Source: Shewanella electrica (GTDB lineage: Bacteria; Pseudomonadota; Gammaproteobacteria; Enterobacterales; Shewanellaceae). Taken from it: a DNA stretch of 64,000 nt. Position 1 is the stretch's first letter, and each line of letters starts with the position of its first letter. Below, piece by piece: positions 5,613-49,535 of this stretch. The translations under genes and the position numbers were made by a program. The notes beneath the pieces were generated by a model. It saw nothing but the letters and a program-made list of their open reading frames with translations, had not been told where the DNA came from and did no database searches. Location: contig NZ_JAKOGG010000004.1 in NCBI RefSeq assembly GCF_022321485.1, positions 50,156-114,155 on the forward strand, in the 5' to 3' direction.

Positions 5613-5796
5613 TCGCTCATGAATTCTTCGTTAGCCAACTTTGCCATGCGCCAGCATGCCCGCAGTTAGCAGCCTTGAACTGCTATGGCTTACCAATCCA
5701 GAGCGTCGGGCAGGCTTATCCGCAACTTCCCTAGCTTTATTTTGAATAATGCAGTTAACTACATGTTCTAACGTTGTTTTTCAAGGATGAGTCACC

Positions 5797-7071
5797 ATGG
5801 AAGCTGTAACCTCTATCGGCCAATTTCGCTGGCGTTTTTTCATTATTCGCGCGTTTAGTGGCTTGATCATGGGCATTATTGCGCCTGTGATGTATCTGGT
5901 GCTGCAAGCAAAGGGGTTTAACATGCTGCAAATTGGCACCTTGGTGATTGTTAGTTCAATAAGCACCATGGTGTTGGAAGTGCCGTGTGGCATGTTGTCT
6001 GATCGTCTCGGTCGCAAAACGTTATTTATCTTCGGCCAGCTGAGCATGCTGTTGTTCGTGTTGGGCATGTATAGCCTCAACTCTTGGGGGATCATGTTGT
6101 TAGTGATGGTATGCGCCGGCATGAGCACCGCGATGATCTCAGGCACGCTCGATGCGTTGTTTGTCGAGCAGCTTAAGGCGCAGCAACTCGGTAGTCGTCA
6201 ATTACAACGTGGTTTGGCGCATTTCAGTCTCGCTAATCAGATGGGTATGTTGCTGGGGGCGCTGTTGTCCGGCGCGTTATTTGCCGATGCGGTGCTGGTG
6301 AGCAGCCGCGACAGCTCATCGAATCTTGCTGATTACACGATGAACTATGGGCTGGTGGCGTTATTACTACCATTGCAGATGTTACTTAGCGGCTATCTGC
6401 TGCATGAAGCGACATCACCTAGCGCAACCCCGGTGCGCCAAGGTTTGCTGCCTCTGTTGCAGGAAGCTTGGCAGCCGTTGATGCAGCAAGCTACGCTGCG
6501 GCTATTACTGCTATCCAGTGCCTTGGGTGCCACGGCTTATATCAGCTTCGAAAAATTCTGGCAGCTCCAGTTAAAAACGCTTATCGGCGAGCAACCGTTG
6601 GCATGGCTGTTCGGCGCATTGTTCGCCGGTTCTATCCTATTAGGTATGGCGGGGCAGGCGATGTCACCGCGCTTTTGTCGGCTGTTTAACTACAACTATG
6701 TCGCGGCCAATATTGCTATTCGGCTGTTACAAGCAGCGTTGTTTGCCGCATTATTTTGGGCGCAGCACTGGCTTAGCTTCGTGTTGGTATTTGCGCTGAT
6801 CTATTGGGTATCCGCCTTATCCTATTCGCCAGTGATGACGCTATTTCACAGTGAAGTGCGTGATAGTGAACGCAGCACTATGTTGTCGATCCGTTCGGTG
6901 TTTATCCAACTCGGTGCCGTGCTTGGCGTGGGCATTGCGGCGTGCAGTGCCGAATACGGCTCGCTGCGGCTGGCGTTTTTCGTGTCGGCGCTGATTTATC
7001 TGTTGTCGATTGCGGTATTGTTTGCGCCATCGTTACGGCGTTTAGGCGTGCGTTTGGCTGAAGAAGCCTAA
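5797..7071 (+). CDS. MFS-family transporter
   Basis: 424 aa with about 12 hydrophobic helices. The loop motif GMLSDRLGRK between TM2 and TM3 is the MFS signature G-x3-D-R/K-x-G-R-R/K. Confidence 0.7.
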   Translation: MEAVTSIGQFRWRFFIIRAFSGLIMGIIAPVMYLVLQAKGFNMLQIGTLVIVSSISTMVLEVPCGMLSDRLGRKTLFIFGQLSMLLFVLGMYSLNSWGIMLLVMVCAGMSTAMISGTLDALFVEQLKAQQLGSRQLQRGLAHFSLANQMGMLLGALLSGALFADAVLVSSRDSSSNLADYTMNYGLVALLLPLQMLLSGYLLHEATSPSATPVRQGLLPLLQEAWQPLMQQATLRLLLLSSALGATAYISFEKFWQLQLKTLIGEQPLAWLFGALFAGSILLGMAGQAMSPRFCRLFNYNYVAANIAIRLLQAALFAALFWAQHWLSFVLVFALIYWVSALSYSPVMTLFHSEVRDSERSTMLSIRSVFIQLGAVLGVGIAACSAEYGSLRLAFFVSALIYLLSIAVLFAPSLRRLGVRLAEEA

Positions 7072-7233
7072 CGCTAGTGCGCTAGTAACGATTGCAGCGG
7101 CTGAGGTGGCGGCCATGGGCTGGTGAATGCGGCGAATCTTGATGGGTGGCTGTAGTGTTTTTATCTAATAAAATGCTTTATTAGTAGTTTAAAGTGTTAT
7201 TATTTTTTTACACCAACAAATTTAGATGTGAAG

Positions 7234-7266
7234 TTGACAGATTTTGTAATTAGATCTACTTTATGC
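7234..7266 (+). promoter_or_regulatory. Candidate sigma-70 promoter for tRNA-Lys
   Basis: TTGACA at 7234-7239 is followed about 17-18 nt later by TACTTTAT and a GC-rich discriminator GCGCCG (stringent-type). An AT-rich UP-like tract lies upstream. Confidence 0.35.
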
Positions 7267-7337
7267 GCCGAGATATGAACAGCCCTATGGTTTCCCCTTT
7301 CGCTTTCTTCCATATCTCAATATCAGTGTTGTTAAAT

Positions 7338-7413
7338 AGGCCGCTAACTCAGTTGGCAGAGTAGTTGACTCTTAATCAATCGGTCGTGGGTTCGAGCCCC
7401 ACGCGGCCTACCA
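7338..7413 (+). tRNA. tRNA-Lys (anticodon CUU)
   Basis: 76-nt cloverleaf. Acceptor AGGCCGC/GCGGCCT, then U8A9, D-arm CTCAGTTGGCAGAG, anticodon arm GTTGA-CTCTTAA-TCAAT with anticodon CTT, T-arm GTGGG-TTCGAGC-CCCAC, discriminator A and encoded CCA. It is near-identical in architecture to enteric tRNA-Lys except U34->C. Confidence 0.9.
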
Positions 7414-7628
7414 ACATCCCTCTTTTCAAGCTCACATTTTCCTCCTTTCGTTGTTGATTTTTGTAGCGCTGCGCCTGATTTCGGCAATTGGTGCGCCATT
7501 AATGGCACTCTCTAGCAAAAAACATCACAATAGCCTCCTTGTGGCGGCGAGCGAGTCAACCAATGGTGTTGGTATTTATGCTCAATGCGCTAGTAACTAG
7601 CTGCGTGTCAAAGTGAAAGAGAATCAAC

Positions 7629-8796: not shown

Positions 8797-10053
8797 TTAG
8801 CGGCCGCCAGTTTGCTGATCATTATCGTCACTACTATTGCTTGCCGTCATCTGCTCATGTGGTGGAATAGGAGTTTGGCAGGCGAGGGCATCATTGCTTT
8901 TCGCCATACGCAATAACATGCGATGACCAATATTGTTGTTCCAGTTAAAGCTGTTTTGCAGCACTACCACGGCGGTTTTTAGGCGTTGATCCATGCCGAT
9001 ATAGCTGGAGAATCCGCCAATAAAGCCGGATTGATACAGAATTTGCTCACCTTCAATCTCATTGCGTAACCAGCCCAACCCTACGGAATCCGCATCTGCA
9101 ACCTGCAATCTCATGGTGGTTGCATCGGTAAAGGCTTGATTAATTACCTCGTTATCCGTGCCATAGAGATGGGCGCGAGCGTATTGCAGTAGGTCGTTTG
9201 CACTGCTCCACAAATTAGCAGCACCGACCATATAACCATGGAATTGCCAATCTGGCACTTGGCTACCGCGAGCAATAAACTTAGGTTGATCCCCCGCATG
9301 TCCACGCGCGCGCTGGGCATAACCCGGCAGCAATTCTGGTTGATAGCCGGTGTTTTTTAGTCCCAAAGGTTTAAGCAACAGCTGCTGGGTGAGTTGTTCA
9401 ACTGGCTCCCCCACACGCTGTTGTATCGCCTCATCTAAAATGCTGTAACCCAAATTAGAATAAATCACGGTTGGCGTGGTGGGTGGCTCAAATGATGCGA
9501 GATAGTCGGCAAAGTCGCCGTTATCTAGTTCAGCGTAAAACTGGTTGCCAGTAAACAGATAACCGACAAACTGATGCAGCATGGCGAAGCTGTTTACCTG
9601 TCGTGGCAGGCCTGAGGTGTGACTGGCTAACTGCTCTAATGTGACGTGGGATGCGCCATCGCTAAGCGGTGTGTTTGGCAGTAATGCACTGAGTGATTCC
9701 TGCCAGCCAAGTTGCTGCTGTGCCACTAACATGGCAACGGTTTCGGCGGTAAAACCTTTGGTCACGGAGCCTACGGCAAACAAGGTATCGCCGGTTAATG
9801 GGATCTGCTGTGTTTCGTCGGTATAACCGTAACTGAATACTTGGGTTTGACCTTGTGGAGTCAACACCGCCACCACCATGCCAGCAGAATCTCCTGATTC
9901 AATGGATGGCAGCGCCAACGCATCCACTTGCTGCTGTAGTGGTACATGACAATAAGCCAACGGGTTATCTTGATCGACATTGTTGCTGGATAAACTACTA
10001 CAACCACAAAGTACGCTGCTTATGAGCAGTAAGAGACTGATTCTGTTCAACAC
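8797..10053 (-). CDS. Serine hydrolase of the beta-lactamase/esterase (class C-like) family, lipoprotein
   Basis: Lipobox LLLISSVLCGCSS. The S-x-x-K active-site motif appears as GSVTKGF. Size and composition fit PBP/AmpC-type esterases. The GTG start is at 10053. Confidence 0.7.
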   Translation of the reverse strand: MLNRISLLLLISSVLCGCSSLSSNNVDQDNPLAYCHVPLQQQVDALALPSIESGDSAGMVVAVLTPQGQTQVFSYGYTDETQQIPLTGDTLFAVGSVTKGFTAETVAMLVAQQQLGWQESLSALLPNTPLSDGASHVTLEQLASHTSGLPRQVNSFAMLHQFVGYLFTGNQFYAELDNGDFADYLASFEPPTTPTVIYSNLGYSILDEAIQQRVGEPVEQLTQQLLLKPLGLKNTGYQPELLPGYAQRARGHAGDQPKFIARGSQVPDWQFHGYMVGAANLWSSANDLLQYARAHLYGTDNEVINQAFTDATTMRLQVADADSVGLGWLRNEIEGEQILYQSGFIGGFSSYIGMDQRLKTAVVVLQNSFNWNNNIGHRMLLRMAKSNDALACQTPIPPHEQMTASNSSDDNDQQTGGR

Positions 10054-10288
10054 TGTTTATTCTTATCGTACGGCAGCACTCTTGTGGAGAGAGCGCTTGA
10101 TATTAAGAAGACTACAAACGGTACTGTTTATTGTTGTTAACGCTTGCACGATGTCATGATGTCGCTATTAGCAAAGACAAGCCATTTTGTTAAAAGAGGC
10201 GTTATTGTCTAGAAACTTTAATCAACAGAGATAACATCATCATTTTTATGGAAAGACACTTCCATGGTCACTGGTCTAATTGCCGCCT

Positions 10289-10480
10289 TTAATCCATTAC
10301 TATGCCGCTCGATTTTCCGCTGAGGCGCGCCAGAATATCCTGCATTACACCTTGAAATCTATCTAAATTTGTCTGAGTGATTGTTAATGCTGGAACTATG
10401 CGAAATACCTCTAAATTTGGCCGACGCACCACAGAGATTTTTTGCTGTAATAATTGCTGGTGGATTAACGTGGCAAAGGA
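10289..10480 (-). pseudogene. 3'-terminal remnant of a class-III (acetylornithine/GABA-type) aminotransferase
   Basis: The minus-strand translation ...ISVVRRPNLEVFRIVPALTITQTNLDRFQGVMQDILARL resembles the conserved C-terminal N-h-h-R-h-h-P-P-L-x-I block of PLP aminotransferases. No upstream catalytic portion is present, and the surrounding 700 bp are non-coding. Confidence 0.35.
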
Positions 10481-10804
10481 ATATGTGGCATTTGCTTCAA
10501 ACTGTAGCAAATGCCGCTTTGCATCTCACCGCGATAGTCACGGCTTTTTTGAGTGCGGCAAAAGTCATTTACTCAGCTTAACGGACTGATGACTTTAAAC
10601 CTAGCGCATGCACTGTCTACGGCAAAAGGTTCTGTAAAACTCATACTCCTCGGCATTTGTTTTGTTTCTTGCACTAATCGCCATGTCATTCACCCTCCTA
10701 TGGTTGACTCAAATGATGACTGCTGGCAGGTTTAGTTATATCTAAAGTTGAAGCGTGAAATCGTTCGTTGTGTGGTCGAAGGATTAACTGCATCGGAGTT
10801 ATGC

Positions 10805-11506
10805 ATGAAACTCATTGCCATCATTACTGGCTTGTTACTGGTTATGACCAGTGCAACAGCGTCTGCGACAACGGTTACACCTGCAGCTTTTGCACCGAAG
10901 TTGGGGTTAGCAAAATATCAAGTCACATACTTAGATAAGCAGGCACAGCCGATCAGTGTCGGGGATTATCTTGGGCCTTATGATACGCATTTCAGCATGT
11001 GGCAGGAGCAAACGACGCGGGCGGTAACGGTTGCGGCTGAACCTTCGAAGCACAACACTCACCCTTTGGCTAACAGCGCAGCGACCTCATTAGCCACAGG
11101 TGAGCCTGTTCCTGCCATTCAGGGGAAAAACCTGATGGGGCGTGATGTGAAAGAAGATTGGTCAAGTAAGCAGTTTATATTGCTTAGTACCTTCTCTGTT
11201 GATTGCCCCGGTTGTGTAAGAGAGATCCCTGACGTTAAAGCTTTTTCCGAACGGCATGCTAATGTAAAAGTCCTGTATGTCACTTGGGACTCGGTAGAAA
11301 ACAGCCGCCAGTTTGCTAGTCAGTATGAGTTAGAGGCGCAGGTGATCGCCAACGCCGAACCATGGTTAACGCAAGTAGGTATCAGCACTTATCCCACGTT
11401 AATGCTGTTATCTCCCACAGGGCGTCTTCTGTATGCCGATGCGGATTATGATGCCGAAGGGCATGGGCTGCAAAAGATGGCAGAGTTGCTGATCCCCGCG
11501 GTGTAG
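10805..11506 (+). CDS. Periplasmic thiol-disulfide oxidoreductase (TlpA/ResA-like redoxin)
   Basis: Signal peptide MKLIAIITGLLLVMTSATASA. The thioredoxin-fold motif FSVDCPGCVREIP is a C-x-x-C. GGAG lies 5 nt before the ATG at 10805. Confidence 0.65.
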   Translation: MKLIAIITGLLLVMTSATASATTVTPAAFAPKLGLAKYQVTYLDKQAQPISVGDYLGPYDTHFSMWQEQTTRAVTVAAEPSKHNTHPLANSAATSLATGEPVPAIQGKNLMGRDVKEDWSSKQFILLSTFSVDCPGCVREIPDVKAFSERHANVKVLYVTWDSVENSRQFASQYELEAQVIANAEPWLTQVGISTYPTLMLLSPTGRLLYADADYDAEGHGLQKMAELLIPAV

Positions 11507-11618
11507 CGCTGCCCGAAGGGTTCATTTAAATGCCTGCTGAACTTGGTTGCGCTAGTTGACTCATTGCCACTGGCTGCGCCTCGCCCATAATGCGGTTGCT
11601 TTGAACGAAAATTAAACA

Positions 11619-11831
11619 CTAAAGAGAAGCAGCCTCTAAGGCGGTCAACTGCTCATTCAAATTAGCCCAATGTTGGCAAGCGTCGTAGCATGCTTGGGCC
11701 ATTTGTGGCAGTTCTTCAAAAGCCGCTGGTAGCCTATCTTCTACCAGATCATGTAATTCACCCGCCCGTTCAGACGCGATACGTTTGGCGCGGCGCACCT
11801 CTTTTTGCAGTTGTTCCAATTGTTGTGCCAT
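11619..11831 (-). CDS. Small all-helical hypothetical protein (70 aa)
   Basis: MAQQLEQLQKEVRRAKRIASERAGEL... is coiled-coil-like. A strong AAGGGA RBS lies 7 nt upstream of the ATG. No recognisable family. Confidence 0.4.
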   Translation of the reverse strand: MAQQLEQLQKEVRRAKRIASERAGELHDLVEDRLPAAFEELPQMAQACYDACQHWANLNEQLTALEAASL

Positions 11832-12603
11832 GATTTGTCCCTTGCTGTTAATCAACTGGTCAATAACGCTTCAAAAAGTAGACCAACGATAATTCCCAAT
11901 AAATCAGCATATTAATTATCTTATGCACGTAGTAAATGTGACAAACTACCGGCTTTTGGCAGGTTTTCGACAAAGATAACTGAACGTGGCGTATCAGTGA
12001 ACGACGTGGCATGGTCCGCAAAAGCCCCCGTCAGTTGATATCAATTCGTGGTTGCTAATTGGACATTATTTCACAGCGCCTTACGGCGAACTTTTTTAAA
12101 GCCGATACGGCTAAGGATGATACACAGTGGCGTTAAGACGCCATTTATGCCGCTGCGATATGCTGCTAACGGGCTTTTTTCTGCTCACTATTGCAACAAT
12201 ATTTACAATTTGTCGGTGATATTTTGCTAGAGCAAACAGCGTTGATGGGGTAATGTGCGCACCCGTACCGAACTTCAAAATTTTAGCTTGGATTACGGTA
12301 GTAGTTGGTCGTGTTTTATCAATCATTGTAGTGAGTTAGCGGGGCCGCGGCGTTGGACGCTGGTGGTGATATTGCAGTGTATTTGCGGCGGTTAAGTCGC
12401 GCTTTATCAGCCGCTGAATTGAGTCATGGTGGCTAACCACTGCTCTAGGAGCTGTTGCTGGAGCATAACGACACCGCACACCACCTTCCATGCCTAACTC
12501 ATGCGCTGCCAGCTGCAACAACAGCCAGCAAAGATAACCATCCCCTAATATCCATAGATTATTTGTTTGAGCTAGTAGACGTTAAAAATGAAGCAATCGA
12601 TGT

Positions 12604-13599
12604 GTGGCTGTTGTCATTGGATTGATGCATATGGCGAATGAAGTACTAAAAGTGCTGATGGTTGATAACGCTATGCTGATGTGCGATTTCGTTCACTCTG
12701 TGGTGGCGAAAATCGACGGCGTTAGCCTGATTAGGGCAAATAGCTATCGCATGGCTTGCGACATTTTAGCAACGGAATCGGTCGATTTGTTGCTAACGGA
12801 AATTAATCTCGATACTCAGGCCTGTCTTGGGTTAGAGCTGGTGGGCCGCCTGCGTTCTGACGAGTTTGAAGCTACGGCTTACAGCATTCCCATTATCGTG
12901 TGTTCAAGTGTTGCGCTTCGCAGTGCTGTGCGCGATGCCTTGTTATACGATGTCAGCGACTTTCTTATCAAGCCGATTTCCGCCGATATTGTGAAATCGA
13001 AACTGCAATACCATCTCACTCGGCCGAATGAGGTCAAACAAGTGGCGTTTTATGATCGGTTGCATCAATACCGCTTGCAACAGGCAGAAGAGAAGCCAAA
13101 GCCAAACAGCGGCTTAAAAGCTTGGATCGTATTGTCTCCTACCAGCGACAGCGAACAAACTCCGTTTGATGACGATGAGAGTGATGATGGGGTGCTCTAT
13201 CGCATGGAGGAGTTTATTCGCTGGCCAGATGATACTTCTACCGGTAATCAGGCCATTGATAAACATCTGAAAAAACTGGCGTTTCACGTTAATGGTTTAT
13301 ACTTCGCTTATAAACACAATCGTCGCTTGATCGTGCTAGGTAAAGAGCGCGATAACGTCTGCCAAGCTGTGACATTTTTGGTGCAAGTCATCGGCAGAAA
13401 TTATGTCGAGAATCACACTGATCCGCTATTGCAGCGATTGATGCAGCGCTTGGATAAGCTGGAGCAGATTAACGCTGAGTTGTTGGCGATTGATCTGGTA
13501 CATCATCGAAAATTAGCGCGGGTGTTACGTGCTATATCGCAATGGTGGATGGCAACTTGTAGTCGGCAATTTATGGAGAAAAAGCCACGCAGGCGTTGA
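12604..13599 (+). CDS. Atypical (pseudo-)receiver domain protein with an uncharacterised C-terminal domain
   Basis: The N-terminus follows the CheY-fold pattern: KVLMVDN (DD -> DN), LLLTEINL where Glu replaces the phospho-acceptor Asp, IIVCSS at the Thr/Ser position, and FLIKPI at the conserved Lys. The 200-aa C-terminal region is unrecognised. The start is ambiguous among GTG 12604, ATG 12625 and ATG 12631. Confidence 0.5.
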   Translation: MAVVIGLMHMANEVLKVLMVDNAMLMCDFVHSVVAKIDGVSLIRANSYRMACDILATESVDLLLTEINLDTQACLGLELVGRLRSDEFEATAYSIPIIVCSSVALRSAVRDALLYDVSDFLIKPISADIVKSKLQYHLTRPNEVKQVAFYDRLHQYRLQQAEEKPKPNSGLKAWIVLSPTSDSEQTPFDDDESDDGVLYRMEEFIRWPDDTSTGNQAIDKHLKKLAFHVNGLYFAYKHNRRLIVLGKERDNVCQAVTFLVQVIGRNYVENHTDPLLQRLMQRLDKLEQINAELLAIDLVHHRKLARVLRAISQWWMATCSRQFMEKKPRRR

Positions 13600-13948
13600 T
13601 TTAGCCGCTTGTCTCAATTGGCGGTATAACGTTGCATACCATTGTTATCGGCGGCAGCGGGTGAGGTCGATAAGGCCGGTGGTCGATTGTGTTGTCATTC
13701 ACGGCAATAGCGACTAACGCTGAATAAATTGCCGCCTGAAACGGCATTAAACGCGTGTTTTATGGCGTAGCCTCTGCTTATCTTGTTTGACCAGCGCCAC
13801 TGGCAGCGCGCTTTTTATCGCGCGGTTAACCTGATTGAATACCCAATATCAACGCTCGATAATCCTTTACTTTTATTAGACAACTCAGCGGCTTATATGT
13901 GATTCTTCGCGGTGTTGTTATCCCTCGTTACTGATTGTTGGACTTTTT

Positions 13949-14905
13949 ATGAAGCAGTTACTTATTTTCGTGAGCCTCGTTTGGCTGAGCTGTTCGCCAG
14001 TCTATGCCGTAGAGTTAGGTTTTAGCGGTATGACCCAAATTAACGAACATGCGTATCTGGTCGTGCTGGATAAGAAAGTGTTCCACCAAGGGGAACGGGT
14101 TGGCATTCTCAATATCGGTAAACACGGCAAACAGAAGTTTAAGCCGGTGACCATTGCTGATTGGCATGATGATGATGGTCAAGCGAGTGACCTCGAATCT
14201 GTATGCAAGTTACCGCAAACCGATGATGAATACCTGCTGGCTGAATCGGGTTACTGGCATGGTAAGTTTGGCCGTATTTTTCACATCCAACTAAAGCAAC
14301 AACAAGCTAAGGTGCTGCATGTTTATCATCTGCCTAACTATGTGAGTAACTCAGAGCAGGTTGACGGTGATAACTTTGAGGGATTGGAGTGTGTGGCTCA
14401 CGGCCAGCAAACTTATCTGGTACTCGGCGAGCGCGGTGGTAGTGAACTGTACCGTTCCGGCTTACTTAGATTCGGCTTGCTCAATGCTGATAAAACGCAA
14501 GTGGATTGGCAATCTTATGCCGACAACGCACTGCCAGTGAGCGCTCCAGGTCAATGGCATAATGTTGATGGCAAGCGCAGTATTGCTGATCTCTATCTCG
14601 ATCCGCACGGCACCTTATGGGCAGTGGCGACTGAAGATGCTGGTGATCAAGGGCCGTTTCGCTCGGTGATTTACGCCGCCGCCAAATTGGTAGCCCCAAC
14701 CGCTGAGCAACCATTGCCATTACAACTGACCACGCCAACACAGGCCCAATGGGTTGTTGATGGTTTTAAAGTCGAGGCGTTAGCTGCGCCCACCCAGCGT
14801 ATTAATAATAGTGTGATGAGCTTTGGTACCGAGGATGAAGACTTCGGTGGCGTCTGGCGCGTGCTATTTGCACCGCTCGAAAATTCAGCGCAGCTGGTTA
14901 AATAA
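13949..14905 (+). CDS. Secreted hypothetical protein
   Basis: Signal peptide MKQLLIFVSLVWLSCSPVYA. 318 aa, hydrophilic, no recognisable motif. Confidence 0.45.
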   Translation: MKQLLIFVSLVWLSCSPVYAVELGFSGMTQINEHAYLVVLDKKVFHQGERVGILNIGKHGKQKFKPVTIADWHDDDGQASDLESVCKLPQTDDEYLLAESGYWHGKFGRIFHIQLKQQQAKVLHVYHLPNYVSNSEQVDGDNFEGLECVAHGQQTYLVLGERGGSELYRSGLLRFGLLNADKTQVDWQSYADNALPVSAPGQWHNVDGKRSIADLYLDPHGTLWAVATEDAGDQGPFRSVIYAAAKLVAPTAEQPLPLQLTTPTQAQWVVDGFKVEALAAPTQRINNSVMSFGTEDEDFGGVWRVLFAPLENSAQLVK

Positions 14906-15213
14906 TATCATTTGTATGACTATATTAGTGATGGCTAAATATCTTTGTTATGTGCTGATATTTAGCTTTTTATATTAAAAAAATCAGCATGTGTTTACTG
15001 ATGACTTGGTAATCATGCTGATTATGTAGTGAAAACAGCTTGAATATTATTAAGTTACATATCTTTATTTAGTTTTTAATGATATATCGTTGAATTGCCC
15101 GCTCACACAATGATGCTAGTCTTCGCAGACGTTTTTTTAACGACCCAGTCACTGGGGGCTTCACCATCCCTTTAAGGGAAATACTAAAAACTCTGCAAGA
15201 GCGAGCAATAATA

Positions 15214-16503
15214 ATGAATAGCACTTCTATTTCTGCCAAAGATAAGCGCACGATTAATATCGTGTTCTTTCTCTCAGCGGTGATTATAACGCTGGCCACT
15301 CTTCAAAATCAGTTACCGTCAGGGCTCATTGGGGCACTGGGCATCATGGCGGTTGTTGGTTATTTACTTAATCTCATTGGTAACAAGACGCCAATCATCA
15401 ATCAATTTTTTGGTGGCGGGGCGATCGTGGTTATCTTTGGTTCATCTTACATTTTTCATAGCGGCTGGATGCCACAAGAGACCGTAACCACGGTAACGAC
15501 CTTCATGAAAGGAGGCGGTTTCTTAGCATTCTTTATCGCCAGTTTGGTCACAGGATCTGTTTTGGGGATGGATTCTAACGTACTGAAAAAGGCCGCACTG
15601 AAATATATTCCAGTGATCCTTGGTAGTGTCTTTTTTGCCTTTCTATTTGCCGGTGTTGTGGGGCATTTGTTGGGCGAGGGATTCTTTGAATCCATCATGT
15701 TAATTGCGTTGCCGATCATGGGGGGCGGCATGGGCGCTGGCGCGGTGCCGCTAGTGGAAATTATGTCGGGGCAAACTGACATGAGCAGCGAAGCCTTGAT
15801 GTCTAAAATGGTTCCCGCACTGGCCATTGGTAATGCGATTGCCATTGTCGTCGCTGGGCTGTTGCACAAACTGGGTCAGTACGTGCCATCATTGACGGGT
15901 AATGGCCGTCTGATGCGAGATGGCGACGTAAAAGAGCAGATGGAAGAGATACGCGACGCACACACCGTGCAACAACTCGGTCTTGGCGCGCTTTTAGCTA
16001 TCTCAATGTTTTTTGTTGGCACCTTGTTGGCCTCTGTGATCGACATGCATCCTTATGCATTGATGATCATCTTTGTGGCGCTGATTAAAGTCTCTGGGCT
16101 GTTACCACGCGAACTGGAAATTGCTGCACACGGCTGGAGCAAGTTTGTGGTCGATAACCTGACGCCAGCACTGCTGGTGGGCATTGGTGTGGTTTATACC
16201 GATTTAGGCCAGATCGCTGCGGCGCTGACGTGGGAAAACTTGCTGATGGTATTTACCACCGTCGTGGGGGCCGTTGTTGGTAGCGCCTTGGTTGGCCGTA
16301 TGATGGGCTTCTATCCGATTGAAGCGGCTATTACCGGTGGTTTGTGTATGGCAAATATGGGGGGGACCGGCGATGTAGCGGTATTGGCCTCATGCAAACG
16401 TATGGAGCTGATGCCATTTGCACAGATCTCCTCTCGCCTTGGCGGTGCGCTGATGTTGATTCTCGCTACGCTGATTTTGCAGCTATTAAGCTCAGTGATG
16501 TAA
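15214..16503 (+). CDS. 2-hydroxycarboxylate (citrate/malate):cation symporter, CitS/2HCT family
   Basis: Collinear with Klebsiella CitS: LPIMGGGMGAGAVPL, YTDLGQI, GFYPIEAAITGGLCMANMGGTGDVAVLASC and AQISSRLGGALMLILA. Confidence 0.85.
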   Translation: MNSTSISAKDKRTINIVFFLSAVIITLATLQNQLPSGLIGALGIMAVVGYLLNLIGNKTPIINQFFGGGAIVVIFGSSYIFHSGWMPQETVTTVTTFMKGGGFLAFFIASLVTGSVLGMDSNVLKKAALKYIPVILGSVFFAFLFAGVVGHLLGEGFFESIMLIALPIMGGGMGAGAVPLVEIMSGQTDMSSEALMSKMVPALAIGNAIAIVVAGLLHKLGQYVPSLTGNGRLMRDGDVKEQMEEIRDAHTVQQLGLGALLAISMFFVGTLLASVIDMHPYALMIIFVALIKVSGLLPRELEIAAHGWSKFVVDNLTPALLVGIGVVYTDLGQIAAALTWENLLMVFTTVVGAVVGSALVGRMMGFYPIEAAITGGLCMANMGGTGDVAVLASCKRMELMPFAQISSRLGGALMLILATLILQLLSSVM

Positions 16504-18085: not shown

Positions 18086-18100
18086 GCAGGATTTAGCACA

Positions 18101-18129
18101 AAAACGGTAGCCGCGGCTGCCGTTTTTTA
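18101..18129 (+). terminator. Rho-independent terminator after the yahK-like gene
   Basis: acggtagccg/cggctgccgt hairpin followed by tttttt. Confidence 0.7.
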
Positions 18130-18321
18130 TGCTTATTTTTGCTGGTGGTTTTTGCAGCTTGCTTAGTTGATGCGTCGCAGGCCGCGCCTCGTTCAGAATG
18201 TGTTTAATTTGGATAAAAATTAAACAATAAAAATAAACTGCTCCCAGCAGCATGACGGCCACCAAGGAAAATATTAAGGTAGCAGCGGTATACCTACCCA
18301 AAAGCGATAAGGAGTTTTGCT

Positions 18322-19245
18322 GTGGTAATGGAACAAGTGAATAAGCTGGACCGCGCGCGTGGATGTTTGATTGGCCTTGCAGTAGGCGATGCCATCGGCA
18401 CTACGGTGGAATTTATGCCGCGCGGCACATTCACCCCAATTGATGATATGCAGGGCGGCGGCCATTTTCAGTTGCAAAAAGGCCAGTGGACCGACGATAC
18501 CTCAATGGCATTGTGTTTAGGCCACAGTTTGCTGGAACGCAATGGCTTTGATGCCCACGACCAGATGCTGCGTTATTGTGACTGGCATGACAACGGCTAC
18601 ATGAGTAGCACTGGCAGTTGCTTTGATATCGGTAATACCGTACTGGCCGCATTGCAGCGTTTCCAACAAACTGGTGACCCTAACGCCGGGGCCACCAGCC
18701 GCTGGAGTTCTGGTAATGGCGCGTTGATGCGAATGGCGCCGATTGCGCTGTATTATCACGATGATGCCAACAAAGCCGCGTTTTATGGCGCCGAAAGCTC
18801 ACGTACCACGCACGCCTCTGCCTTGTGTCTTGATACCGCACAATACTTCGCCCAGCTGTTAGTCACCTTAATCGACGGCGCTGACAAATCTTGCTGTTTC
18901 AGTTTGCACTATCAACCGAAAACCCCTGAGTTAGCCGCCATTATGTCGGCAGAGCTGCTAAGCAAACAGCCTGCGCAATTGCGCGGGAGCGGTTATGTGA
19001 TGGAATGTTTAGAAGCTGCGTTATGGTGTTTTTTAACGACGGATAGCTTTGCTGCTTGTGTGCTGGCTGCCGCTAATCTCGGTGATGATGCTGATACCAC
19101 CGCTGCTGTTGCCGGGCAACTTGCTGGCGCGTACTACGGCTATCAAGCGATTCGCGCAGATTGGCGTGCGGCACTTTGCCAACACGATGACATGTTACTG
19201 TTGGCCGATGCCTTATGGCATGCTGAAGCCTCACCGTGTGATTAG
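18322..19245 (+). CDS. ADP-ribosylglycohydrolase (DraG/ARH3 family)
   Basis: N-terminal RGCLIGLAVGDAIGTTVEF and C-terminal LGDDADTTAAVAGQLAGAYYG are the two hallmark metal-binding blocks of the ADP-ribosylglycohydrolase family. TDDTSMALCL is also present. Confidence 0.85.
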   Translation: MVMEQVNKLDRARGCLIGLAVGDAIGTTVEFMPRGTFTPIDDMQGGGHFQLQKGQWTDDTSMALCLGHSLLERNGFDAHDQMLRYCDWHDNGYMSSTGSCFDIGNTVLAALQRFQQTGDPNAGATSRWSSGNGALMRMAPIALYYHDDANKAAFYGAESSRTTHASALCLDTAQYFAQLLVTLIDGADKSCCFSLHYQPKTPELAAIMSAELLSKQPAQLRGSGYVMECLEAALWCFLTTDSFAACVLAAANLGDDADTTAAVAGQLAGAYYGYQAIRADWRAALCQHDDMLLLADALWHAEASPCD

Positions 19246-19250
19246 CCACT

Positions 19251-20060
19251 ATGACCTCAGAGTATGCCGCAGATGCTGCTGAACTACAGCGTTTAACCCA
19301 GCTGTGCATTCCCTTTAATCGTTGTAATGTTCCGGCTTGGTTGCTGGCGAGTACCGGCTACCAAGCGCGGCCGATCCCGTTACTGCTAGACAGTATTGTG
19401 ACTTGGTATCAACCGCTGTTTGATGAGTTAGCCTTATTGCCAGACGCTGGAGCACGTGCCGATGCCTTTGAGCGTTTTATGCAGCAACGGTTTGACTTGA
19501 GTACCTTGGCGGATGAACCACCACAACGGGCTAAGCTGCACTATCGACGCATGATCATCGGTTGGCTGTTTGATTCAGACAATGACCAAGGTGCGGCATG
19601 GCGGAGCTGGGCCGAATCCCGTTTTGGCTTGCTGACGCAGTTTCATCGTCAGCCGCTGTCAACGCCAGACAGTACCAGTTATGGACGCTATCGCCAGCAC
19701 AGCTTCGCCGCCACTAACAATAGCAATGAGTTGTTTGAACAACTCGATCTGCTGTATCAATTTTGCCAGCTACAGCTAACGCTGTCACCGCAAGCCCCAT
19801 CTCACCTGACACTCTATCGCGGTTGTGCTCACTTAGAGGAGTTGAGCGACATCGCCGCTGGCGTGGTGCAGTTTAATAATCTCAGTTCATTTGCGGCAAC
19901 CGCCGAGAGTGCTGCCCAATTTGGCAGTTGTGTGTATCAAGTTGCGGTACCGCTGAGCAAGATTGTTTGTTACGAGTCGCTATTGCCAAACATCATGACT
20001 GGCGAGCAGGAATTTATGGTACTTGGCGGCCTTTATCGCAGTCGCTTATTGCGCGTATAA
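19251..20060 (+). CDS. Putative R-S-E class ADP-ribosyltransferase (DraT-like), coupled to the upstream hydrolase
   Basis: It starts 5 nt after the ARH stop codon. The C-terminal region carries the three ART motifs in order: aromatic-Arg LTLYRG, Ser-rich FNNLSSFAAT, and G-E-x-E followed by hydrophobics (TGEQEFMVLGG, compare C3/iota GEYEVLL). The N-terminal half (...GARADAFERFMQQRFDL...) is not recognisable by eye. Confidence 0.5.
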   Translation: MTSEYAADAAELQRLTQLCIPFNRCNVPAWLLASTGYQARPIPLLLDSIVTWYQPLFDELALLPDAGARADAFERFMQQRFDLSTLADEPPQRAKLHYRRMIIGWLFDSDNDQGAAWRSWAESRFGLLTQFHRQPLSTPDSTSYGRYRQHSFAATNNSNELFEQLDLLYQFCQLQLTLSPQAPSHLTLYRGCAHLEELSDIAAGVVQFNNLSSFAATAESAAQFGSCVYQVAVPLSKIVCYESLLPNIMTGEQEFMVLGGLYRSRLLRV

Positions 20061-20333: not shown

Positions 20334-23300
20334 ATGCTGAACATTGCTAAATCCCTCGGACGGTTAAACTTTTCGATCCGGGTAACAGTGGTATCAGTAT
20401 TTATTATCGCTACCTTAATCACTGCATTGGTGGCGTTAACACTGCAATATCATTTTGCCTTCTCGTTAGCCAAAGATAACGTTGAGGATAATTTCCGCGA
20501 TTTTGGCGAAGAGGTGGGGCAAGCGCTCAAGCAGCTCGATGACTCGGCTGCCAGCACCGTCCGCATCTTAGCCAAGCAACAAACCTATAGCTCCATCGAC
20601 ACTATTCCTGAAAACACCTTAGATCTGTTCGCCGAATTCATGCGCACCAACGCAATGTTTAACGCTATCTACGTTGGTTTTAGCGGTGGCGATATCTATG
20701 AAGTGGTGAATCTGGATAGCGCAGCGATTATGCGACGCCAATACGAAGCCGATGCGAACGACCGTTGGTTGATTATCCAAGTGCGCGATATTGATGGTAA
20801 GCGTGTGCGACAGATGGCGTTTTTATCTGAGAACTATGAGGTGCGCCATACCCGCGAAGAGCCATCAAACTACTATGCTGATCGACGTTTGTGGTTTCGC
20901 CAATCCAACGCGCTAACGGTGAACAAAACCGAGCCTTATCTGTTTCAGAACCTGCAAGCTCCGGGGCAAACCTACTCATTGAAAGTGAATAATGGCCATG
21001 CGGTGATCGCGCTCGATATTGCCTTGAGTTCGGTGCTGCAATACTTCGCTACCAATATGAAAAACAGCCATGCCGAGGCGTATATCTATCAGCCCTCGGG
21101 GAGTTTGATCGCTGCCGTCAATCAAAAGATAACCGAGAATGATCTGCCGCAGATGCCAAAACTCAATTGGACTGCAGAGCAGCAGCAAATATTGGCGAAA
21201 TATCCTGAGATCAAAGTGTCCAATGAGACCAATTGGTCGCCAATAGATTTTATGATCTCTGGCGAACCCTCTGGCTACAGCGTCGATTTTCTACGCATGG
21301 TGGCGCAGGCGATGGGGGTGCATTTTAATTTTGTGAATGGGGTCAGTTGGTCTGAGTTATTGCAGCTTTACCAGCAAGATGACATCGATATGTTGCAGTC
21401 AGTCAATAAGAGTATCGGTAACAGCCATTTGGGAGAGTTCTCCGATGCTTATCTTGACCTGCCATTTGCGCTAGTGACTAGCGATCAACAGCCAGATTTA
21501 TACAACATCGCCTCCTTGTACGGTAAAACTATCGCCATCCCCCAAGGGTGGACCATAGTGAAATATATTCAGCGCAAATTCCCACAGATCCGCGTGGTTG
21601 AATTGCCCACAACTAAAGATGTATTACAAGCGGTGGCGAGTGGCAAAGTATTTGGCGGGATTGATTCTCATGCGGTGCTGAAATATGAAGCCGCTAACTA
21701 TTTTATCAGTGGCTTACGTTATCAAACGCAGCTCGATCTCAACAGTCTTGGTGTACCCAGTGAGTTACACCTTGTCGTGAAAACCGCCGATGCTGAGCTG
21801 TTGCCGCTATTAAACCAAGCAATGAAAGAGGTTAATGCGCGCCACAGCCAACTGCTGAGTAAACATTGGTTAGGTGAGCAATGGCAGCAAGAGCATTCCA
21901 CCACCGTGCCGTATCAAAAGTTTATTGAGTTTGCTACGGACGCCACTAAGCAAAATCAACTGATTCAGACGGCGGAGCAGGGCAAAGATTTTTTTGTCTA
22001 CGTCACTCGTGTTGATGAAGCTGAGAGCTACACCCATTATCTGGCGGTATTGCTGCCACGTAATGACTTATTGGAACCAGCAATCAAACGGGTAGCCATT
22101 TCGCTGGCGATTACCATCGGCGTGCTGATACTGCTCAGTCCCGCATCGTGGTTATTTTCGGGGCCGATTGTGTCACCCATTCGGCGGTTGGCGATTGAAA
22201 ACGAAAAAATCCGCAATCGTCAGTATGACAAGTTGGATATTCCCAATAGCAGCATCACTGAAGTGCATAATCTGGGGCAGTCAATTAAAGAGATGGCGAG
22301 TGCCATTCAAACACATGAACAGAGCCAGCAAGAGCTGTTAGATGCCTTTATTCAACTGATAGCACAAGCCATTGACTATAAATCGCCTTATACCGCAGGC
22401 CATTGTTTACGGGTGCCTGAGCTAGCGTTGATGCTGGCGAAGCAGGCACACGATAGTGATACGCCAGCGTTTGCTGATTTCAAATTCAACACTAACTCGG
22501 AGTGGCGTGAATTCCGCGTCGGCGCGTGGTTACACGACTGTGGCAAGATCACCACACCGGAGCATATTGTTGATAAAGGCTCCAAGTTAGAGGTGATTTA
22601 TAACCGTATCCATGAAGTTCGTATGCGCTTTGAGGTGCTCCTGCGCGATGCCGATATTGAGTACTGGCGAGCATTGAATAAAACACCGGAAAAACAGGCG
22701 CTACTGGCGCAGCAGCGCGAAGTTAAGCGCGCACAGATCATGGATGACTTTGCTTTTGTTGCTAAAACCAACGTCGGTGGCGAGCAGCTCAGTGACGCGG
22801 ATAAGGCGCGCTTAGTCAATATCAGTAAACAAAGTTGGACGCGTCATCTCAGTGATCGCCTCGGTTTGTCGCCATTAGAGGAACGCATGTATCACAGCTT
22901 GGAACCGGAAGAGTCGTTACCGGCCACCGAACAGGTGTTGAGTGACAAACCGATCCACGAAGTTCCTCGCTTCCACAGCACGGATTATCCAGAACATCTC
23001 GGTATCAAAATGGATATTCCTAAGCTGCTGTATCATCGTGGGGAGTTGCATAACTTAATGATTGAACGCGGCACCTTAACCGCCGAAGATCGCTTCAAAA
23101 TCAATGAGCATATTGTGAATACGATTCAGATGCTCGACACCTTGCCGTTCCCGCCAGAACTGAGCAAAGTGCCACGTTACGCCTCAACCCACCATGAAAC
23201 TTTAGACGGCCGCGGTTATCCACGTAAGCTCACCGCCGATGACCTGTCGGTGCCTGAACGCATCATGGTATTGGCCGATATTTTTGAAGCGCTTACCGCG

Positions 23301-23513
23301 AATGATCGTCCTTATAAAAAGGCCAAACCCGTCAGCGTGTCGCTCAAGATTTTGGCGCAGATGGTCAAAGATGGGCATGTGGATGAAGACGTCTTTAAAC
23401 TGTTTTTAAGCTCCGGTATCTATCTCGATTATGCGCGCCGTTATTTGGCGCCAGAACAGATTGATGCGGTGGATATTGAGCAGTTTATGGATGTTAAATG
23501 GCGCAAAGATTAG
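20334..23513 (+). CDS. Membrane-anchored sensor with a periplasmic Cache-like region, an SBP_bac_3 solute-binding domain and a cytoplasmic HD-GYP c-di-GMP phosphodiesterase
   Basis: TM1 VTVVSVFIIATLITALVALTL. A periplasmic stretch of about 550 aa includes an amino-acid-binding-protein-like block (NWSPIDFMISGEPSGYSVDFLRMVAQAMGV...). TM2 VAISLAITIGVLILL. The HD-GYP domain has HD (AWLHDCGKITTPEHI) and HHETLDGRGYP motifs. Confidence 0.8.
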   Translation: MLNIAKSLGRLNFSIRVTVVSVFIIATLITALVALTLQYHFAFSLAKDNVEDNFRDFGEEVGQALKQLDDSAASTVRILAKQQTYSSIDTIPENTLDLFAEFMRTNAMFNAIYVGFSGGDIYEVVNLDSAAIMRRQYEADANDRWLIIQVRDIDGKRVRQMAFLSENYEVRHTREEPSNYYADRRLWFRQSNALTVNKTEPYLFQNLQAPGQTYSLKVNNGHAVIALDIALSSVLQYFATNMKNSHAEAYIYQPSGSLIAAVNQKITENDLPQMPKLNWTAEQQQILAKYPEIKVSNETNWSPIDFMISGEPSGYSVDFLRMVAQAMGVHFNFVNGVSWSELLQLYQQDDIDMLQSVNKSIGNSHLGEFSDAYLDLPFALVTSDQQPDLYNIASLYGKTIAIPQGWTIVKYIQRKFPQIRVVELPTTKDVLQAVASGKVFGGIDSHAVLKYEAANYFISGLRYQTQLDLNSLGVPSELHLVVKTADAELLPLLNQAMKEVNARHSQLLSKHWLGEQWQQEHSTTVPYQKFIEFATDATKQNQLIQTAEQGKDFFVYVTRVDEAESYTHYLAVLLPRNDLLEPAIKRVAISLAITIGVLILLSPASWLFSGPIVSPIRRLAIENEKIRNRQYDKLDIPNSSITEVHNLGQSIKEMASAIQTHEQSQQELLDAFIQLIAQAIDYKSPYTAGHCLRVPELALMLAKQAHDSDTPAFADFKFNTNSEWREFRVGAWLHDCGKITTPEHIVDKGSKLEVIYNRIHEVRMRFEVLLRDADIEYWRALNKTPEKQALLAQQREVKRAQIMDDFAFVAKTNVGGEQLSDADKARLVNISKQSWTRHLSDRLGLSPLEERMYHSLEPEESLPATEQVLSDKPIHEVPRFHSTDYPEHLGIKMDIPKLLYHRGELHNLMIERGTLTAEDRFKINEHIVNTIQMLDTLPFPPELSKVPRYASTHHETLDGRGYPRKLTADDLSVPERIMVLADIFEALTANDRPYKKAKPVSVSLKILAQMVKDGHVDEDVFKLFLSSGIYLDYARRYLAPEQIDAVDIEQFMDVKWRKD

Positions 23514-47238: not shown

Positions 47239-48639
47239 ATGGTGAAAAACTTCAGCAGAAAATCTATCGCGGCTAGCTTGCTCATGGCTACCTCAGTGAT
47301 GGCTGCCGGCACCTTCGCCAGCGATAAAACTGAACCTCGTAGTGAGGTTTATCAAAACAAATTTAAACAGCAGTATGCCTCTTGGCATGCCACAGAGGAA
47401 AGCAAAGACAACACCGATTTACTGGCAGCAGATCCTAACTTGGTCGTGTTGTGGGCGGGTTATGGTTTTGCCAAAGATTACCGTGCGCCTCGCGGCCATA
47501 TGTATGCGGTGACAGATGTGCGTGCAACATTGCGTACTGGTGCACCACATGCGGCAGGAGAAGGTCCAATGCCGATGGCCTGCTGGAGCTGTAAAAGCCC
47601 TGACGTGCCACGTGTGATTGAAGAGCAAGGTGAAGACGGTTATTTCACTGGTAAATGGTACAAAGGCGGTGAAGAGATCAGCAACACTATCGGCTGCTCT
47701 GATTGCCACGAAAAAGGCACCGCGAAACTGCGTATTAGCCGCCCATTCGCGGAGCGTGCTTTTGACACCATTGGTAAGCCATTTGATAAGGCATCACGTA
47801 ACGAGAAACAATCGTTAGTCTGTTCACAATGCCACGTCGAGTACTACTTCGAAAAGACCGAAGATCGTAATGGCTTCGTGAAGTTTCCATGGGATGACGG
47901 TACCTCCGTTGAAGCGATGGAGAACTACTATGACAACATCCATTTTGCAGACTGGACGCACAAAATCTCCAAAACGCCGATGTTAAAAGCACAGCATCCG
48001 GGATATGAAACATGGTCAACCAGTGTCCATGGGGTTAACAATGTCTCTTGCGTCGATTGCCATATGCCTAAAGTGACCAATGCGGAAGGCCGTAAATTCA
48101 CCGATCATAAAGTCGGTAACCCATTTGATCGGTTTGAAGATACCTGCGCTCGCTGCCATACCCAAAGCAAAGAGTTCATGGTCGGGCAATATGAGAAAGG
48201 CAAAGCAAAAGTGCTGGAATTGAAAGCGGCGGCTGAAACCCAGTTGGTGCATGCTCACTTTGAAGCCGGTGCAGCTTGGCAAGCGGGAGCGACTGAAGCT
48301 GAAATGACACCGATTCTCGAAGATATCCGTCACGCACAATGGCGTTGGGATTTTTCAATCGCATCGCATGGTGTTTATGCTCATAACCCAACTGAAGCGT
48401 TGCGTATTCTGGGGACCGCGGTAGATAAAGCGGCTTCAGCCCGCATCAAGCTGGCGCAGTTACTGGCGCAAAAAGGGGTTAAACAACCGGTAGCCATTCC
48501 AGATATTTCTACCAAGGCGAAAGCGCAGGCGGCTATCGGCCTAGATATGGATCAGCTAAACGCAGAGAAAGAGAAATTTAAGCAGGAAGTCTTGCCTAAA
48601 TGGGATGCTGCCGCGAAAAAACGTGAAGCAACGTATTAA
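47239..48639 (+). CDS. nrfA: Cytochrome c552 nitrite reductase (pentahaem NrfA)
   Basis: Signal peptide, the Lys-ligated haem motif CWSCK, plus four CxxCH motifs (CSDCH, CSQCH, CVDCH, CARCH). Size and order match NrfA. Confidence 0.93.
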
Positions 48640-48720
48640 TTCAGTCGACCAGCATATCCAGTGCACAATAGTTGCTTGGTTTGAGTAACGACTCAACTTT
48701 AATACGTTAATTTAGTGATA

Positions 48721-48748
48721 AAAGCCCTCAGAATGTTGAGGGCTTTTT
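48721..48748 (+). terminator. Rho-independent terminator after nrfA
   Basis: aaagccctca-gaatgt-tgagggcttt followed by tt. Confidence 0.8.
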
Positions 48749-49120
48749 GCTATTAATCGGTAGCGTTTTAAGTGAGCACCATCGATGTGCAAATGTTCAT
48801 AAATGGTGATCTATTGTTATTATCATCAACTAACAGTGTGGGTTATCGCTCCGTAATCTCTATGCCTCAACATCCTCTATACGCACTCGCTAATCTATTG
48901 ATTTAGCCTATATCAACTGAATTGATTGACTCACGCTTCGCCATCGTCTCCGACATGATTGCTTGGTAAATGTTGCGGAAAATTTACCAAGCAATCACCG
49001 TCATTACTCGTGCTCGCTTGTGGTGCATTTCTCGCGGTTGTGACCACTAATGGTGCAAATGTTTTGAACCAAATTGGTATGTTTGTATGTAAGCCTTTGT
49101 AAAACAAAAAATTAACATTT

Positions 49121-49521
<401 letters not shown>

Positions 49522-49535
49522 AGGGGATAATAATA

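Follow-up and report, generated by a model that had tools for sequence, protein, structure and literature searches.

The 64-kb window analysed here (the whole stretch of DNA, from Shewanella sp. C32, i.e. Shewanella electrica) contains two adjacent genes on the forward strand, an eraser and a writer of ADP-ribosylation. The upstream gene (18322..19245), for a predicted ADP-ribosyl(arginine) hydrolase (ARH; 307 aa, PF03747) that is DraG-like in role, begins with GTG, has an alternative ATG at 18328, and ends with TAG at 19243-19245. It is followed by draT (19251..20060), encoding a 269-aa protein of the NAD(+)--dinitrogen-reductase ADP-D-ribosyltransferase family (PF07357). At the junction (19243..19253, forward strand) the TAG stop, a 5-nt spacer (ccact) and the ATG of draT could be read directly, in agreement with the spacing given in a preliminary description of this DNA; no obvious Shine-Dalgarno sequence was seen across these positions, and the two genes are probably translationally coupled. 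Related loci have at this point either an ATGA overlap (L001, L002, L006, L007, L008, L014 and L082) or a gap of a few bases.

A terminator-like hairpin with a 12-bp stem and a T-run (18100..18127, forward strand), detected by consensus scan only, lies 3′ of the upstream Zn-alcohol-dehydrogenase gene, which implies that ARH and draT are transcribed together, as a unit of just these two genes, from a promoter located within 18137-18321. The search for sigma-54 −24/−12 elements (TGGCAC-N5-TTGCW, up to two mismatches) returned 44 matches against 53.7 expected by chance, with none in the gap that precedes either the ARH gene or the Rop-like gene, and therefore gave no evidence for control by NifA or NtrC. 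Both genes are intact with all catalytic residues kept, and both are under purifying selection, with dN/dS of 0.052 for ARH, in comparison with its 91%-identical orthologue from L082, and 0.066 for draT, the orthologue used lying at a dS of about 1.

The writer matched the DRAT profile PF07357 over its full length (E 5.1e-75, 252.4 bits, cut-off 25), the alignment spanning residues 22-264 of the protein and positions 1-254 of the 256 in the profile. It is 100% identical to the RefSeq protein WP_238895642.1 of Shewanella sp. C32, which already bears the name NAD(+)--dinitrogen-reductase ADP-D-ribosyltransferase. The three R-S-E motifs named in the preliminary description are all present and in the order proposed there, with R190 in L188-Y189-R190-G191 (codon 19818..19820), S213 in L211-S212-S213-F214, part of NNLSSF (codon 19887..19889), and the ExE/ARTT catalytic glutamates in E252-Q253-E254 of GEQEFMVLGG (codons 20004..20012; E252 at 20004-20006, E254 at 20010-20012), all on the forward strand. 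R190, S213, E252 and E254 were invariant in alignments of 16 and of 43 DraT family members, with identities down to 32%. The AF2 model (pLDDT 89.4) has an ART-like C-terminal core and its best structural neighbours are ADP-ribosyltransferases, so that the predicted fold and the profile match both agree with the preliminary assignment. No solved relative was found by sequence search of the PDB, consistent with PMC8120803. To judge from these sequence features, the ART of the pair is a bona fide DRAT-family protein.

The eraser is less canonical. It matched PF03747 (ADP_ribosyl_GH) over its full length (E 1.6e-76), carries the metal-site motifs WTDDTS and GDDADT, both evident in its sequence, and adjoins draT. 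Against the DraG model TIGR02662 it reached only 169.7 bits (cut-off 337.05); five DraGs from nifH-linked loci scored 359-400 bits with the same model, and five ARHs from loci of the type described below scored 144-172 bits. The NCBIfam model for Tri1 (NF041672) gave 313.8 bits, also under its cut-off of 490, and the match covered model positions 62-358 only, in line with a PDB alignment that begins at Tri1 residue 66. Among solved structures, Tri1 (6DRE, 235.7 bits, E 7.9e-69) was closest, followed by the Thermus thermophilus protein 2CWC (224 bits) and Rhodospirillum rubrum DraG (2WOC, 121.8 bits). On these scores, the ARH belongs to a Tri1/TTHA-like ARH subfamily, outside the canonical DraG equivalog. 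The earlier designation of a DraG/DraT-type pair holds for the combination of an ARH with an R-S-E ART and for the writer, a true DRAT; since the ARH fails the DraG equivalog model, its specificity for ADP-ribosyl-NifH is assumed.

As stated in the preliminary description, there are no nif genes in the window: tblastn with nine Nif queries (NifH, D, K, Y, E, N, X, U and S) gave no match in the 64 kb. The glnK and amtB genes reported at 29 kb from the pair are real and lie downstream of draT on the forward strand, with glnK, encoding a PII protein, at 49132-49521 (PF00543, E 8.8e-33) and amtB at 49536-50783 (PF00909, E 6.9e-97). In characterised DraT/DraG systems, the products of glnK and amtB gate DraG activity. 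The two genes in the window are a housekeeping pair, which by analogy may or may not exert such gating here. Immediately around the pair, the alcohol dehydrogenase (ADH) gene lies upstream and an SBP/HD-GYP sensor gene downstream. The same neighbourhood (phytase-like, 2HCT, ADH, ARH, DraT, HD-GYP, AsnC, SdaA and MCP) is found in Shewanella avicenniae, and five or more Shewanella lineages have kept the ARH-DraT pair.

Nitrogen fixation genes are encoded elsewhere in the genome. We took the host to encode nitrogenase on the basis of NifN, recorded by name and accession (WP_238896978.1) for S. electrica C32 on another contig than draT, together with full nif clusters in close relatives, in which the NifH Arg101 was also read. 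In S. avicenniae, nifHDKTY-DUF6129-nifENX-fdx is located on the same chromosome as the ARH-DraT pair, about 294 kb away, and the sequencing run SRR31968160 contained both a contig with an 88%-identical DraT and a contig with a complete nifHDK...ENX cluster. NifH from both sources has kept GRGVIT with an Arg at position 101. The claim that the pair stands outside a nitrogen-fixation context is thus true only locally, given NifN in the same organism, nif clusters in syntenic relatives and the embedding of the pair within nif genes in Vibrio-type loci.

Beyond the host, we considered a gammaproteobacterial layout, here termed class B (Vibrio, Aeromonadaceae and Shewanella), in which a non-DraG ARH lies upstream of draT. 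Eleven named class-B DraT carriers also have NifD or NifN, namely V. diazotrophicus, V. albus, V. hannami, Vibrio sp. HA2012, RC27 and JC009, S. mangrovi, S. avicenniae, S. electrica, S. ferrihydritica and an unnamed Shewanella sp., and none of the carriers for which nif status could be established proved to be without nif. Conversely, the nif-carrying S. dokdonensis, S. yunxiaonensis and Shewanella A32 were absent from the DraT matches, indicating that nitrogen fixation in Shewanella does not require a DraT. With V. hannami NifD as query, the best 120 representatives included no Shewanella, which would suggest a nif-less host; this reading was rejected, because clustering at 90% had hidden the NifDs of Shewanella inside a cluster named after Vibrio. 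According to a review (PMC8120803), only nitrogen fixers have DraT homologues. We found no direct literature on S. electrica, or on Shewanella with nif or draT; a passage of PMC10774155 gives a second-hand hint in the form of nitrogenase reads "related to Shewanella mangrovi".

In the phylogeny, the DraT of the window falls within a monophyletic clade of gamma sequences that have the ARH-upstream layout in common. Class-B pairs from Vibrio, Celerinatantimonas, Psychromonas, Aeromonadaceae and other Shewanella share the layout of the window and have ATGA-type junctions, with 59-65% identity within the same ARH subfamily and 45-56% within the same DraT clade; the DraTs of the S. electrica group are 53-56% identical to other class-B DraTs. 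At three loci (V. hannami L005, Vibrio sp. JC009 L089 and contig L088), ARH followed by DraT sits between nifENX-fdx and nifUSV, whereas the Shewanella pair occupies a non-nif neighbourhood hundreds of kilobases from nif, and we conclude that the pair moved away from the nif cluster in Shewanella. Most other class-B loci are likewise unlinked from nif within 10 kb. The class-B pairs are automatically annotated, and we know of no experimental study of them.

The systems of R. rubrum and Azospirillum brasilense share with the window pair a PF07357 writer with the R-S-E triad, a metal-dependent PF03747 eraser, nif genes in the organism, NifH Arg101 (read in relatives for the present host) and glnK-amtB. 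They differ in arrangement, as their draTG(B) operon adjoins nifHDK with draT preceding draG, whereas the window has ARH before draT on the same strand and no adjacent nifH. The canonical layout, with draT divergent from nifH and draG downstream of draT, is therefore not that of the window; nifH was divergent from draT in 58 of 83 DraT loci, of which 80 came from a genome scan and the other three were the window, L081 and L082. They also differ in sequence, the ARH being about 30-38% identical to DraGs near nifH-linked draT and the DraT about 35-41% identical to sampled nifH-divergent DraTs from beta-, gamma- and alphaproteobacteria.

Given an already annotated DraT and nif genes in the host, one would expect the pair to work as the textbook nitrogenase switch, and it is reasonable to suggest, with a probability of roughly 80%, that the pair is a DraT/ARH module for post-translational switch-off and switch-on of nitrogenase in nif-carrying S. 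electrica C32. By analogy with Rhodospirillum and Azospirillum, DraT would respond to an ammonium upshift or energy loss by using NAD+ to mono-ADP-ribosylate NifH at Arg101; the ADP-ribose on NifH, the Fe protein, would block its docking to the MoFe protein, and the tightly linked upstream ARH would remove it again and restore nitrogenase activity. The gatekeepers expected from the same analogy are the PII proteins (GlnB/GlnK) and AmtB, through which the window pair would presumably be regulated. Three observations count against this reading: the 64 kb contain no nif gene, the ARH scores below the DraG cut-off, and the search for a promoter of sigma-54/NifA type upstream of the pair found none. 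The preliminary description had left the target open, and NifN in the host together with the nif-linked relatives now points to nitrogenase, with NifH Arg101 as the probable site in S. electrica C32. It had also held that the pair would be unremarkable as a DraT/DraG orthologue in a diazotroph; with a DraT orthologue in a nif carrier, the finding is largely deflated by that standard and the pair is essentially ordinary.

It is unlikely that in Shewanella the pair has been recruited to another target, instead of NifH or besides it, e.g. some other Arg-containing protein of metabolism or signalling, and that it acts more generally as a reversible switch by ADP-ribosylation, in place of a nitrogenase switch or in addition to one. 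Such a recruitment would fit the lack of linkage to nif in this genus (a separation of about 294 kb in S. avicenniae), the neighbourhood conserved across species without any nif gene and with the SBP/HD-GYP sensor gene adjoining, the eraser that is no DraG equivalog, the DraTs of the S. electrica group at only 53-56% identity to other class-B DraTs, and the nif-carrying Shewanella without a DraT match. Nevertheless, all DraT carriers with determined nif status have nif, the orthologous pair lies inside nif clusters at three loci, and, since most other class-B loci are also unlinked within 10 kb, and some of these come from lineages known to include diazotrophs (e.g. Vibrio and Celerinatantimonas), missing linkage by itself is weak evidence. 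With similarly low probability, the class-B module, having exchanged the canonical DraG for a Tri1-like ARH, might be regulated unlike the textbook case, e.g. by stoichiometric co-synthesis instead of sequestration of the eraser by AmtB/GlnK, and its Shewanella version might have targets beyond NifH. That the pair is instead a decaying and no longer functional relic of an ancestral nif island is the least probable reading; its separation from nif and the V. hannami draT copy, apparently N-terminally truncated with an in-frame stop upstream, could suggest decay, but the window genes are intact with their catalytic residues, evolve at dN/dS of 0.05-0.07 at dS about 1, and have been kept in those five or more Shewanella lineages.

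A module of toxin and immunity protein or of toxin and antitoxin, on the pattern of Tre1/Tri1 or DarT/DarG, had also been proposed and appears very improbable; in such a module the ART would act as a toxin that arrests growth, and the ARH would serve as the antidote. The ARH is closest in sequence to Tri1, the immunity protein that accompanies the T6SS effector of Serratia proteamaculans, whose partner Tre1 is likewise an arginine-type R-S-E ART, and a gene order that places the antidote first, with a junction that overlaps or nearly does, resembles that of toxin-antitoxin operons. However, the ARH falls under the Tri1 cut-off and misses the first ~60 residues of Tri1, whose N-terminal segment reportedly inhibits Tre1 by direct binding, and its partner is a DraT rather than Tre1, a full-length DRAT protein without a delivery domain. 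No T6SS, VgrG, PAAR or Rhs genes were recognised in the annotated neighbourhood (ADH, 2HCT transporter, HD-GYP sensor, AsnC), PADLOC gave no defence-system match, and Pfam detected neither DarT nor a macrodomain, only PF07357 and PF03747. The stable chromosomal synteny across Shewanella species, the strong purifying selection and the presence of nif in the carriers checked also speak against such a module, and beyond the closeness of the ARH to Tri1 we found no support for it.

As a discovery, the pair carries little weight, given a writer already annotated as DraT and a host with nif. Shewanella is a genus not usually regarded as diazotrophic, and our results indicate that one of its clades (S. 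electrica, S. ferrihydritica, S. mangrovi and S. avicenniae) has nif together with a post-translational regulator of the DraT type. The DraTs of Vibrio, Aeromonadaceae and Shewanella are paired in reversed order with a non-DraG, Tri1-like hydrolase, a non-orthologous eraser that to our knowledge nobody has characterised. The patchy occurrence of DraT among diazotrophic Shewanella and Vibrio provides natural comparisons for engineering ammonium-insensitive nitrogen fixation.

The gene pair consists of an ADP-ribosylhydrolase (ARH) ORF of 307 aa (18322-19245, forward strand, TAG stop at 19243-19245; ADP_ribosyl_GH, Pfam PF03747, E 1.6e-76) and, after a spacer of 5 bases, a draT ORF of 269 aa on the same strand (19251-20060, ATG at 19251). 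The latter matched the DRAT family (PF07357) over its entire length (E 5.1e-75, 252 bits with the cut-off at 25 bits). This spacing and the R-S-E ADP-ribosyltransferase motifs of the second ORF had been noted in the preliminary description, and both were borne out: the motifs are L188-Y189-R190-G191, L211-S212-S213-F214 and G251-E252-Q253-E254, with R190, S213, E252 and E254 shared by all homologues in two alignments, one of 16 and one of 43 sequences (identity down to 32%). The ORF is 100% identical to WP_238895642.1/MCH1924335.1 of Shewanella sp. C32 (= Shewanella electrica, 452-kb contig), named "NAD(+)--dinitrogen-reductase ADP-D-ribosyltransferase" in RefSeq, so the writer had already been annotated as DraT. 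Compared with the orthologues on a contig from SRR31968160, dN/dS was 0.052 for ARH and 0.066 for DraT (dS about 0.9-1.1), indicating strong purifying selection on both genes and ruling out that they are relics. A strong terminator-like hairpin lies 3' of the upstream ADH gene (18100-18127) and no sigma-54 promoter match was found in the 18.1-18.3 kb gap upstream of ARH, suggesting that the two genes form a unit of their own.

The eraser belongs to a different ARH subfamily from the canonical nitrogenase eraser DraG. The window ARH scored 169.7 bits on the DraG equivalog TIGR02662 (cut-off 337 bits) and 313.8 bits, over model positions 62-358 only, on NF041672 (cut-off 490 bits), the model of Tri1, the immunity protein of the T6SS effector Tre1. 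Its best PDB match was Tri1 (6DRE, 235.7 bits, aligned from Tri1 residue 66), followed by Thermus thermophilus 2CWC (224 bits), and the DraG structures of R. rubrum and A. brasilense reached 121.8 and 115.1 bits, respectively. Unlike Tri1, the window ARH carries no N-terminal extension. Five ARHs of the same gene layout likewise failed TIGR02662 (144-172 bits; 302-350 bits on NF041672), whereas five DraGs from loci with draT divergent from nifH passed it (359-400 bits). By these scores, the eraser of this layout is not an equivalog of DraG, nor of Tri1.

A genome scan yielded 80 DraT loci, whose layouts were separated by tblastn and a neighbour-joining tree. In class A (58 loci), from beta-, gamma- and alphaproteobacterial diazotrophs such as Azonexus, Gallionella, Chromatiaceae and Ectothiorhodospira, draT and nifH are divergently oriented; the class A DraTs share 35-41% identity with the window DraT, and the DraGs nearby 30-38% with the window ARH. 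In class B (17 loci, counting the window, S. avicenniae and the SRR31968160 contig), found among others in Vibrio, Celerinatantimonas, Psychromonas, Aeromonadaceae, Pseudaeromonas and Shewanella, draT is directly preceded on the same strand by an ARH with 59-65% identity to that of the window. Class B DraTs form a single clade, with the window DraT nested inside, except for the one in an acidobacterial MAG (L051). The two genes overlap by ATGA in seven class B loci and are separated by a few bases in most others, and tight coupling is thus common, though not universal, in this layout. No nif genes were found within 10 kb of most class B loci; in three, V. hannami (L005), Vibrio sp. JC009 (L089) and contig L088, the pair is flanked by nifENX-fdx and nifUSV. 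Eleven named class B DraT carriers also have NifD or NifN, namely V. diazotrophicus, V. albus, V. hannami, Vibrio sp. HA2012, RC27 and JC009, four named Shewanella species and one Shewanella sp., and no nif-less carrier was seen among those whose nif status was determined.

Several loci differ in detail. In L051 (labelled Candidatus Sulfotelmatobacter, 5674-7462), a DraT of the class A clade is preceded, with an overlapping junction, by a Tri1-like ARH 47% identical to that of the window, reflecting either independent assembly of the same arrangement or horizontal transfer. The DraT genes of Marinobacterium lacunae (L011) and Marinobacterium sp. YM272 (L012) are sister to the class B clade, with no ARH and no nifH within 10 kb on both sides. 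An in-frame stop immediately precedes the nif-embedded draT of V. hannami (9904-10732), and TTG is the sole start left, giving a DraT of 239-243 aa that is ~30 N-terminal residues short; between this draT and nifU, a TacA-antitoxin/GNAT-toxin pair (11067-11833) has been inserted on the other strand.

The preliminary description placed the pair outside a nitrogen-fixation context. This holds for the window, in which tblastn with NifH, D, K, Y, E, N, X, U and S detected no nif structural or assembly genes, but not for the host, whose record includes NifN. A first NifD search returned no Shewanella among the best 120 representatives; the NifD of S. dokdonensis, S. yunxiaonensis and Shewanella sp. 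A32, which carry nifHDKTY-DUF6129-nifENX-fdx, sits within a Vibrio-named cluster. With NifN of strain A32, a more variable protein, as the query, cluster look-up recovered WP_238896978.1 of Shewanella sp. C32/S. electrica on a 119-kb contig; for C32 itself, the nif evidence consists of this named record together with close relatives. S. ferrihydritica A3A has NifN and a DraT sharing the 90% cluster of the window DraT, and both S. mangrovi and S. avicenniae carry NifN and DraT. The complete S. avicenniae chromosome (CP071503.1) carries nifHDKTY-DUF6129-nifENX-fdx at ~617.9-627.1 kb and the ARH-DraT pair at ~920.8-922.6 kb, where the gene order matches that of the window (Rop-like, phytase-like, 2HCT, ADH, ARH, DraT, SBP/HD-GYP, AsnC, SdaA, MCP). 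SRR31968160 gave a contig with an 88%-identical DraT and the same synteny, and also a nif contig whose NifN belongs to the C32 cluster. In the complete genome of S. dokdonensis (CP074572.1, L084), nifY (112+123 aa, 13413-14119) and nifE (108+363 aa, 14577-15991) are each split in two; both are intact in its draft assembly (L083; 235 and 471 aa), so the splits are due either to frameshifts introduced by sequencing or to true pseudogenisation.

Two further genes keep their places in S. avicenniae and the SRR31968160 contig. A Rop-like ORF of 70-78 aa (11619-11855, reverse strand; PF05082, E 1.2e-23) lies ~6.5 kb upstream of the pair; its family is described from nitrogen-fixation operons, and the ORF may be a further nif-accessory gene that has moved out of the nif cluster. 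Directly 3' of draT is a sensor gene of 1059 aa (20334-23513, forward strand) with periplasmic SBP_bac_3 and HD-GYP-type HD_5 domains.

Arg101 of NifH is the canonical DraT target, and the NifH proteins of the Shewanella nif loci studied keep GRGVIT with Arg at position 101. The textbook nitrogenase switch is the best-supported mechanism, at a probability of about 0.8, its target and regulation being predicted by analogy: upon an ammonium or energy shift, DraT would mono-ADP-ribosylate Arg101, the ARH would reverse the modification, and PII/AmtB would be the likely gatekeepers. The glnK-amtB pair (49132-50783) pointed out earlier is indeed present 29 kb away, but it is a housekeeping pair and its closeness carries no weight; with nrfA (cytochrome c552 nitrite reductase) it forms a row on the forward strand (47239-50783), an ordinary nitrogen-assimilation neighbourhood.

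That the pair acts on targets besides NifH is unlikely but conceivable, as it no longer resides in the nif cluster and its eraser is not DraG. The toxin/immunity or toxin/antitoxin module raised in the preliminary description, to which the ARH similarity to Tri1 and the antidote-first gene order might point, is very improbable, given that the writer belongs to the DraT family, the ARH misses the Tri1 extension, no T6SS or Rhs gene was recognised in the annotated neighbourhood, PADLOC matches are absent, chromosomal synteny is stable and nif co-occurs in the carriers checked.

According to a review (PMC8120803), only nitrogen fixers have DraT homologues, and the window case conforms to this. 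Measured against the yardstick set in the preliminary description, the pair, with its previously annotated DraT orthologue in a host that carries nif, is unremarkable. V. natriegens ATCC 14048 is without DraTG (bioRxiv 10.64898/2026.05.30.728972). S. dokdonensis, S. yunxiaonensis and A32 were absent from the 97 DraT homologues found, and no ARH-DraT follows nifENX-fdx in either S. dokdonensis assembly or in Shewanella sp. A32 (L085). DraT thus seems confined to part of the diazotrophic Shewanella, namely the electrica/ferrihydritica and mangrovi/avicenniae groups. What is mildly new is the host genus, the non-DraG eraser in a reversed, tightly linked layout across a gammaproteobacterial clade, and the patchy distribution of DraT within the diazotrophs of Shewanella and Vibrio.
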